From positions 1 through 62,329 of IMG/VR virus record IMGVR_UViG_3300036790_000194: a DNA stretch of 62,329 bases; one strand, 5' to 3'. The translations under genes and the position numbers were made by a program. Each line of letters opens with the position of its first letter. The stretch's first letter is position 1. The DNA is from a virus (taxonomy: Duplodnaviria; Caudoviricetes). Below are positions 16,269 through 17,756 of this stretch, in pieces. The notes below the pieces were generated by a model, which saw nothing but the letters and a program-made list of their open reading frames with translations, made no database searches and was not told the DNA's origin.

Positions 16269-17756
16269 TCACAGCACCCAGCTTACCAGCACGGCACCAT
16301 TGCCGCCTGTACCACCCGTCACGTCCGAGCCGCCGCGCATACCACCTGCCCCGCCAGCGCCAAGGCCATTTGCGCTTCCGCCATTGCCGGTCGTGGCCGC
16401 AATGCAGAGTGCACCGCCACCGGTTCCGAACGAAGAATTCCCGCCGCCACCCGAACAACCCGTCGTCGCGTTGGAATAGCCTGCCTGCCCGTAGCCGCCC
16501 GGAGCCTGCGCGGATATGACATTCGTCCACGCCAAGGCAAGTCCGGTTGCACCAGCCGTCGCCACATTGGCGTTGAGGCGATTACCTTGCGAGATCGAAA
16601 CCCTGCTCGCATCAGGAGAACTATTGCCCGGCAAGCCGCCTTTCGCGACGACAATGCTTGTGGCCGCATAGGTGAGTGTGGTGTCACCACCAGTATTGGC
16701 CGATGTTGCGCCACCACCGACACTCACCGTGACGGTCTGTCCGGCAGTAAAGCCGCTAAAGTCCGCAATGACTTCGGATCCCGCCATGCCTCCGGCACCG
16801 GCAGCGCCGGATGATGTCGTCCCTGCGCCGCCACCACCGCCGCCGCCAATGGCGTGAAACCGAAACACAGTCGCCGTTGTAGCTGCGGCAGGAATCGTAA
16901 AGCTGCCATTGGAAGTGATGAGTTGTTCGTTGAGGACCGGGATTACAGTTGCGGAGGGCGATGCCGAAGCCCCGCTTTCATTGGCCAGCATTGTGCCATT
17001 CGCGATTGCTGCAAGGCCCGCTGCCGGAAGTTGCTGAAACGTCGGGTCCGCCGATGCACCATTGGACAGAAGCGCGTAGCCACTCGTGCCTGCAGCGGTC
17101 GGATTGACACCTGCCGTTCCGGCCCCGACGAGAACACCGTGGTTGGTGAGCGTCGCGCGTCCCGTGCCCCCTTGCGGCGCACTCAATGGAGTCGTGAGGC
17201 CAGCAAGTGATGTGATGTCCGAGTTGGCACCAGAAGCCGCCGCTCCCATGCCGAGCGTATCGACAGCGCGATGGACGTTTGTGCCATCGCTGATGAGCAG
17301 CGCGCGTCCGCCTTGGGGGATGGAAATAACCGTCCCGGCAGGATTTCCCGTGCCGTCATTCGCACCCGCGCCGAGCGTGAAGGCCCCGGTCGTGCCATTG
17401 AACACGGTGAATAGTTCGCAGCCGCCTTGCGGGTACAGAACGTCGATATTTCCCGTCAATGTGCCGGTTAAGATGAAACTCATATGCCGGGATTGGTCCG
17501 CAGCGCCATTGGCGACCGTCAGGACGACGTTGGAATTGCCTGCTACCGACAGGCTCAGAGTCGAACCAACGGCAGCGTCGATCAGCGTACGGCCCGTATT
17601 CTCAAGCGTGCCCCATGTGTTGGTGACAGAGGGGTCGCCCGGCTGAGGCTGTGGCATTCTGACGCAAGCCGAGAACGTAGTTGCCGCATTTACGGGAGCT
17701 GAAAGTATGCCAGCCAACATAGCGACGCTTAAAGCTGCGGTGACGAGATGTTTCAT
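16269..17756 (-). CDS. Tail fibre protein with N-terminal signal peptide and Gly-rich C-terminal domain
   Basis: MKHLVTAALSVAMLAGILSAPVNA then ATTFS...GD...NTWG...N...LIDAAV fibre-anchor-like domain; SGANSDITSL..LTTPLS..QGGTG; IGGGGGGG...GGNGAVLV.W glycine-rich domain. Confidence 0.8.
   Translation of the reverse strand: MKHLVTAALSVAMLAGILSAPVNAATTFSACVRMPQPQPGDPSVTNTWGTLENTGRTLIDAAVGSTLSLSVAGNSNVVLTVANGAADQSRHMSFILTGTLTGNIDVLYPQGGCELFTVFNGTTGAFTLGAGANDGTGNPAGTVISIPQGGRALLISDGTNVHRAVDTLGMGAAASGANSDITSLAGLTTPLSAPQGGTGRATLTNHGVLVGAGTAGVNPTAAGTSGYALLSNGASADPTFQQLPAAGLAAIANGTMLANESGASASPSATVIPVLNEQLITSNGSFTIPAAATTATVFRFHAIGGGGGGGAGTTSSGAAGAGGMAGSEVIADFSGFTAGQTVTVSVGGGATSANTGGDTTLTYAATSIVVAKGGLPGNSSPDASRVSISQGNRLNANVATAGATGLALAWTNVISAQAPGGYGQAGYSNATTGCSGGGGNSSFGTGGGALCIAATTGNGGSANGLGAGGAGGMRGGSDVTGGTGGNGAVLVSWVL

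Follow-up and report, generated by a model that had tools for sequence, protein, structure and literature searches.

Does a tailed phage send one of its own tail fibres through the cell envelope of its host? To our knowledge, the cytoplasm is assumed to be where every part of a tailed phage folds and is put together. The question is raised by an open reading frame (ORF) at positions 16269–17756 (minus strand, as are all features of this stretch given below) of IMG/VR virus record IMGVR_UViG_3300036790_000194, a 62,329-bp stretch of DNA that we analysed as a whole and call the window. The window is the entire contig C72 of a 221-contig genome bin and reads as a podophage genome. The ORF encodes a protein of 495 residues, composed of a leader, an N-terminal fibre domain, a linker with a widespread fibre motif, and a C-terminal glycine-rich domain. 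In the reading that we favour, and hold with moderate confidence, this protein is the phage's own tail fibre, an ortholog of leaderless fibres to which a cleavable Sec signal has been added, and it is exported, disulfide-bonded, and joined to the particle at lysis.

The leader and the native N-terminus of the fibre domain

The N-terminus of the fibre protein reads MKHLVTAALSVAMLAGILSAPVNA|ATTFSACVRMPQPQPGDPSVTNTWGTLENTGRTLIDAAVG, with predicted cleavage after Ala24. Residues 1–24 (MKHLVTAALSVAMLAGILSAPVNA, 17685–17756) have a basic n-region (Met-Lys-His at the extreme N-terminus), an uncharged hydrophobic core whose best 10-residue window has a mean Kyte-Doolittle value of 2.44 and no charged residue, and small side chains at positions –3 and –1 of the cleavage site (V-N-A|A); residues 2–17 are helical in a full-length structure model. 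By this anatomy the leader is probably a Sec-type signal peptide for signal peptidase I, and after the predicted cut the mature protein would begin with ATTFSACVRMPQPQPGDPSVTNTWGTLENTGRTLIDAAVG, as quoted in the initial annotation of this locus for cleavage after Pro-Val-Asn-Ala. A lipoprotein signal was tried and rejected, as Cys31 lies seven residues beyond the AxA site, not directly after the hydrophobic core.

Translation of the leader is supported by a Shine-Dalgarno-like GAGGG (17761–17765), read directly from the DNA, which lies 4 nt upstream of the ATG at 17756 and overlaps the TGA of an upstream ORF of 104 residues, an overlap that is a tight coupling of the two genes. Nothing comparable precedes the in-frame ATG at Met34, where the public gene call of the fibre protein (P0001, 462 residues) starts and thereby loses the leader.

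Homologues were collected by searching residues 1–170 against 1.84 billion representatives, which returned 3652 proteins with expectation values (E) ≤1e-3 and 78 at E ≤1e-30, and by a word-indexed search with the fibre protein, which returned 112. The first ~200 residues were aligned in 233 rows (the query and 232 distinct homologues from both searches); 19 N-truncated rows were set aside and the 214 N-complete rows were counted. Of these, 36 carry a Sec-like leader (query included), 177 are leaderless, and one (P0045) has a 41-residue non-signal extension at its N-terminus, which we take as a miscalled start.

Several features of this alignment place a conserved, predicted Sec-type leader precisely where the domain of this fibre family natively begins. 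First, 175 of the 177 leaderless rows start 0–3 residues ahead of the column of query Thr26, typically with M-A-S/T-T-Y/F, and query residue 25 pairs with residue 2 in many homologue rows from the large representative search. In 170 of these 175 rows a small residue (A, S, T, P, G, or V) occupies the second position, and removal of the initiator methionine ahead of small second residues is established. Second, an AxA-type site, often with proline at –4 to –6, lies 0–3 residues before the conserved (S/T)(Y/F)(T/S) in every one of the 36 leaders, and the leader sequences themselves differ. Cleavage would therefore restore the leaderless N-terminus, within about a residue; unlike the domain in those 175 leaderless rows, that of the query reaches the protein start only after the predicted cut. 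Third, the n-h-c layout of the query recurs in the 35 other leader-bearing homologues, and lysine or arginine occurs within the first eight residues of 35 of the 36 leaders (the exception, P0160, is a call that begins upstream of an inner MKR). The initial annotation had noted that the mature end resembles the start, at the initiator methionine, of proximal fibres in this podovirus group, and had argued that cleavage regenerates the ancestral N-terminus. Both ideas gain from this comparison: the mature end aligns residue for residue with the M-A-S/T-T-Y/F of leaderless homologues, the leaderless starts and the AxA-type sites fall at the same junction, and homologues do not align across the leader as though it belonged to the fold.

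Scans of DNA gave a similar distribution. The domain matched 81 loci in IMG/VR (one distant locus from a single-protein scan and 80 from a profile scan), at the protein start in 79 and inside a longer protein in two, and none of the 81 carries a leader. An in-frame stop lies 0–18 codons upstream of the match in nearly all loci with an N-terminal domain; in L004 and L025 the upstream frame is open for 31 and 50 codons, over a stretch that is not signal-like. A scan of Joint Genome Institute (JGI) metagenomes found a leader in one of 80 loci (L142), and a scan of GTDB genome contigs found no relative. The L142 gene (1858–2575) begins with the Sec-like leader MKRIFCLFFASVLLAVSSQAQ and runs off the contig end, so that its protein is incomplete. 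The leaderless fibre of an IMG/VR locus, L003 (~9990–10063), has no ATG, GTG, or TTG at its aligned start (…EANISSFSQNL…), with an in-frame stop four codons upstream; its gene call (P0181) begins 21 codons further in, and translation may start from an unusual codon.

All 59 N-complete rows of a distant block (P0051–P0112) are leaderless, as are all cultured-phage homologues with a matched N-terminus, and gain of the leader, not loss, is therefore the parsimonious direction.

A cysteine pair that accompanies the leader

Exactly two cysteines occur in the domain in each of the 36 leader rows, at columns 31 and 113 in 32 rows and at columns 33 and 83 in the other four (P0023, P0138, P0140, and P0152). 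In the window protein, the homologue alignment and counts identify the pair as Cys31 (17664–17666) and Cys113 (17418–17420), the latter in a WP..GC..FSV motif. None of the 177 leaderless rows has a cysteine at columns 29–34 or at column 113, and nine have at least two cysteines anywhere. As judged from these aligned rows, presence of the leader is tightly linked to the cysteine pair (Fisher p = 3e-31, uncorrected for kinship). Either arrangement would fasten the N-terminal strand to the rest of the domain, as expected after a move to an oxidising compartment.

A tree of 155 rows and 129 columns was built with the leader, the first cysteine region, and the second cysteine column excluded, and with the 59 N-complete rows of the distant block kept out. 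The leader state changes at least 17 times on the best tree. Forcing all 36 leader rows into one clade lowered the log-likelihood by 135.7 and was rejected (approximately unbiased test, p = 0.014). On this tree, then, a single origin of the leader is rejected, and the switch appears to have been made repeatedly; with so short and poorly resolved a tree, the real count of switches lies somewhere between a few and seventeen. Four independent pairs sit on well-supported branches, and cysteines change in the same direction as the leader in all four, a number too small for a significant sign test. The initial annotation had proposed scoring leader and cysteine gain together on a tree; the cysteines follow the leader exactly, both in the counted set and on the tree. 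The fibre family thus offers a natural with/without comparison, with the same domain and the same gene position and with the leader present or absent.

Fibre identity, gene position, and a proposed route to the particle

The window encodes a terminase, a portal, a Mu-gpT-like capsid protein, two SU10-type adaptor proteins, a virion structural protein of 694 residues, and an ejection-protein-like protein of 798 residues. The initial annotation had set the fibre gene between two adaptor-type genes, and both score above the Pfam cut-off of 27 bits for PF24175 (SU10_adaptor). The downstream neighbour, an SU10-type adaptor of 248 residues (15521–16267; 60.9 bits), starts 1 nt after the fibre stop. 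On the other side, the 104-residue ORF (17764–18078), which has no family match and is kept beside the adaptors in related leaderless phages, separates the fibre gene from that of a second SU10_adaptor-like protein of 333 residues (18082–19083; 31.7 bits). The GAGGG/TGA overlap and the 1-nt gap to the 248-residue adaptor therefore make the fibre gene a tightly coupled member of a tail operon. The order in the window is 333-residue adaptor, 104-residue ORF, fibre, 248-residue adaptor, and 694-residue protein (13435–15519; a family match to phrog_3287). In the leaderless loci L003, L004, L025, and L053, the order is 333-residue adaptor, 104-residue ORF (unmatched in L025), 248-residue adaptor, and fibre; the 694-residue protein comes next after the fibre in L004 and L025, and homologues of the capsid protein and of a 219-residue protein lie upstream in L004, L025, and L053. 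In 52 of the 81 IMG/VR loci, the fibre has a homologue of the 694-residue protein close by. The fibre gene holds an orthologous position in the tail module. The N-terminal domain is present in a single copy in the contig and in the whole bin, which would leave the conserved docking partners without another fibre of this type.

The conserved N-terminal domain (residues 25–165; 17262–17684) is carried by leaderless tail fibres at their very start. In the full-length model its predicted local distance difference test score exceeds 90 from about residue 50 to residue 165, and similarity over the whole domain places the protein in an unnamed podophage tail-fibre family of the M-A-S/T-T-Y/F ... TWG ... 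type. A short fibre motif, GANSDITSLAGLTTPLSAPQGGTG (within residues 155–229; 17070–17294), is common to annotated tail fibres of cultured phages, and the region matches 49 phage records (from Kuravirus, including SU10, and from Ralstonia and Acinetobacter phages), each over less than 30% of the query. Confidence in the model is low for residues 170–270, which is what one would expect when a trimeric shaft is folded as a monomer. The C-terminal part is a Gly_rich_2 domain (PF21722; residues 282–493; 16278–16913; 33.7 bits against a cut-off of 24.3), and the best solved match of the full-length model is the fibre of cyanophage Pam3 (7ypx_A, E 1.1e-8; 7yfw_a, E 2.3e-7). Under this N-terminal domain the C-termini of the family vary, among them tail-collar, S74 chaperone, glycine-rich, and other types; fibres whose particle-binding end is conserved are usually built in this way. 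The names "fibre anchor" and "virion part" draw on annotation, synteny, and analogy, and because the domain has no significant solved relative, "anchor" is a reading of its position. The claim of the initial annotation that export was added to a true structural protein is upheld as to the direction of change and the synteny; its structural half has the standing of those names.

The window also bears on the host. An Rz-like lipoprotein spanin of 85 residues (MKAAIVIACLTLTAC..., 56057–56314; phrog_1275, E 3e-4) is encoded, and the host should therefore have an outer membrane and hence a periplasm. A DsbA-family gene is present in the bin, to which the contig is tied by binning only. The fibre domain is rare in the host order (two of 301 genomes at E ≤1e-5, the window's own included), and a phage with this domain does not look like a common prophage there.

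Three further proteins with Sec-like leaders are encoded at the end of the tail module, at 2446–2919 and 1928–2449 (four cysteines in each mature part) and at 128–1927 (599 residues, ten cysteines in the mature part). None matched a Pfam or PHROG family; the 599-residue protein has what we take to be a pectate-lyase-like look at its N-terminus. Cysteine counts in the mature parts are even in all four leader-bearing proteins of the window (4, 4, 4, and 10). Another protein, of 794 residues with 14 cysteines (59936–62320), has neither a leader nor a family match. Its gene starts 9 nt from one contig end and that of the 599-residue protein ends 127 nt from the other, so the two would be neighbours if the genome were circular. 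A cysteine-free protein of 1830 residues (3336–8828) has a C-terminal InPase (pyrophosphatase-like) domain (PF18823, E 5e-41); among its PHROG matches are families with the labels virion structural protein, minor head protein, and DarB-like antirestriction protein. In L003, three consecutive leader-bearing proteins (368, about 335, and 735 residues; 2306–6625) lie between the capsid and adaptor genes, and the first of them is related to the window protein at 1928–2449. According to the initial annotation, the N-terminus of the fibre was the strongest argument that the secreted proteins are virion parts; that argument has force for the fibre and does not extend to the three other leader-bearing proteins.

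How would an exported fibre reach the particle? We envisage that the protein is made late, together with the tail genes, and is exported unfolded to the periplasm of a two-membrane host, where signal peptidase I would cut after Ala24 to leave ATTF..., the same end that leaderless relatives have after methionine removal. A Cys31–Cys113 disulfide would pin the N-terminal strand to the body of the domain, and the fibre would trimerise in the periplasm. The finished trimer would dock on the adaptor/nozzle region of fibre-less particles built in the cytoplasm, and would do so only once holin, endolysin, and spanin merge the compartments at lysis. Export, cleavage, and disulfide formation are proposed steps, and late docking and incorporation into the virion are so above all. 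For T4 and P22, it is a classical in vitro finding that finished particles can acquire fibres or spikes late, and the docking step is therefore plausible. Generalised, this scheme is a two-compartment assembly of tailed phages, in which the head and tail core are cytoplasmic and the host-recognition fibre passes through Sec and periplasmic oxidation before the two are joined at lysis, and to which a single fibre family would have switched repeatedly, gaining on every occasion a disulfide that fixes its N-terminal strand; to this wider proposal we give slightly less than an even chance. A fibre assembled in this way might be more stable outside the cell, might keep a receptor-binding or receptor-cutting part away from cytoplasmic precursors, or might act on the dying cell's own receptors.

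Several observations weigh against an exported virion fibre. As far as we know, tailed-phage assembly is cytoplasmic, and we found no described route for a periplasmic part of a tailed phage in the literature. We likewise found no virion proteomic or structural proof for the N-terminal domain family, whose cultured members are tail fibres or tail proteins by annotation. A PDB sequence-profile search gave no solved relative of the domain (best E 0.18, to unrelated proteins), and a fold search with a model of the domain alone, which is poorer in the first 40 residues than the full-length model, gave nothing significant (best hit a tailspike, E 0.013). The hydrophobicity rule used for leaders, taken alone, also flags many non-coding frames. 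L142, a more distant leader-bearing member, has a single cysteine in the visible mature part. Finally, the leader-bearing proteins of L003 are of unknown role and lie beside a leaderless anchor fibre, and leaders in this group therefore need not mark virion parts.

This last point also lends weight to the most serious alternative, in which the protein is exported and cleaved but acts in the periplasm or outside the cell and is not part of the virion, with adsorption left to other proteins. Its role could be to mask or destroy receptors, which would lead to superinfection exclusion or prevent progeny from adhering to debris. The leader and cysteine pair argue for export, not for incorporation, and the window encodes other large candidates for host recognition, one with a leader (128–1927) and one without (59936–62320). 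Against such a role stands the tight coupling of the fibre gene in a tail operon, between adaptor genes, as does the single copy of an anchor domain whose presumed docking partners are conserved. Leader-bearing members also keep the anchor domain under different C-terminal domains, and the exact native N-terminus of 36 proteins would be needed for docking, not for a soluble decoy. On balance we regard a purely non-virion role as unlikely, with enough in its favour to be taken seriously. We think it improbable that the leader stays uncleaved as a signal anchor, which would keep the fibre tethered on the outer side of the inner membrane, either up to lysis or for good. Cleavage is a prediction from sequence, and a hydrophobic core of about 17 residues with a modelled helix at residues 2–17 would suit an anchor; such cores are short for a membrane span, and AxA-type sites recur at the same junction in all 36 leaders despite their differing sequences.

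Translation from Met34, as in the public call, would make the leader a start-site artefact, a reading to which we give very little credence: the GAGGG favours the upstream ATG, residues 25–33 align with the starts of leaderless homologues, and most other leader-bearing homologues have no methionine at the Met34 column and all of them keep the leader. Still harder to credit is a lipoprotein cut by signal peptidase II and acylated at Cys31. Phe-Ser-Ala-Cys at residues 28–31 does fit a permissive lipobox pattern, presumably of the PROSITE type, but this cysteine, well past the AxA site, falls within the conserved domain, is always accompanied by a second cysteine, and in homologues often follows proline, threonine, glutamine, or asparagine, which is not lipobox-like.

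If the exported fibre does end up on particles, then phage morphogenesis includes a step at or after lysis, and disulfides can occur in fibres, perhaps joined in other phages by further modifications of periplasmic origin. A gene caller or annotator that removes or disregards such leaders would also miss the feature, as happened to this protein.

Comparison with known systems

The closest known systems are leaderless members of the family in cultured podophages, namely Pelagibacter phages HTVC023P (gp69) and HTVC027P, Roseobacter phages CRP-901/902 (gp50), phage DSL-LC04, and Synechococcus phage MinM2 / Planktothrix phage Pag-Yong1. A marine relative, L007, matches the cultured leaderless members at E values of 1e-16 to 2e-8, and for the N-terminal domain of the window the E values are 3e-4 (DSL-LC04) and 0.02 (HTVC027P). 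In these phages the domain lies at the start of proteins that have variable C-terminal parts and are annotated as tail fibre or tail protein, in genomes of about 60 kb with an adaptor gene nearby. They differ from the window fibre in having neither a leader nor a cysteine pair, and their role is known by annotation; the searched text of the CRP-901/902 paper reports no mass spectrometry. In HTVC023P (L085) and DSL-LC04 (L086), genes for 2-oxoglutarate-Fe(II) oxygenases are close to the fibre gene.

Phage SU10 (Kuravirus) provides the structural analogy. The free N-termini of its proximal fibre protein sit on the helix-bundle and dock domains of the adaptor and bind the dock domain (PMC9509320). 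The analogy suggests why a free and native N-terminus would be important when the window fibre docks. As in the window, the SU10 fibre gene lies beside an SU10-type adaptor gene (gp12/gp11), and the two fibres have the short fibre motif at residues 155–199 in common. SU10 gp12 differs in that it is not reported with a leader, and its N-terminus was not found to be similar, as no SU10 chain appears among the PDB sequence or fold matches of the window fibre. For the Pam3 fibre (PDB 7ypx, 7yfw), the part that matches is probably the C-terminal glycine-rich domain, to judge from the Gly_rich_2 hit; this is a myophage fibre, in which we saw no similarity to the N-terminal domain of the window.

A precedent for leader-bearing proteins in purified virions is Cellulophaga phage phi18:3 (NC_021794.1), whose tail-module proteins gp085, gp086, and gp087 have Sec-like leaders. 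Its GenBank record assigns all three to the virion or the tail, "based on experimental MS/MS proteomics" (tandem mass spectrometry), and cleavage of their leaders is undocumented there. They differ from the window fibre in having unrelated sequences, a Bacteroidota host, and 0, 1, and 3 cysteines, without the paired-cysteine signature.

In the literature that we could search, where subscription journals and supplementary proteome tables are poorly covered, no paper came up in which a tailed phage exports a tail fibre by way of Sec; the portions of PMC13001222 and PMC3556154 that we saw mention signal peptides for methods or lysis proteins only. The window fibre is of a known kind, a tail fibre, and the assembly route that it implies is undescribed. 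Late phage proteins that use the host Sec machinery are familiar from other settings: pIII and pVIII of filamentous phages, SAR (signal-arrest-release) endolysins, and spanins. Coat proteins of filamentous phages are assembled at the membrane as the particle is extruded, and SAR endolysins and spanins are lysis proteins, not virion parts of tailed phages. What the window fibre and its relatives add is evolutionary evidence of the cleanest kind: an exact junction, two alternative cysteine pairs found only with a leader, and a conserved gene position, all within one domain family that exists in leader-bearing and leaderless forms.

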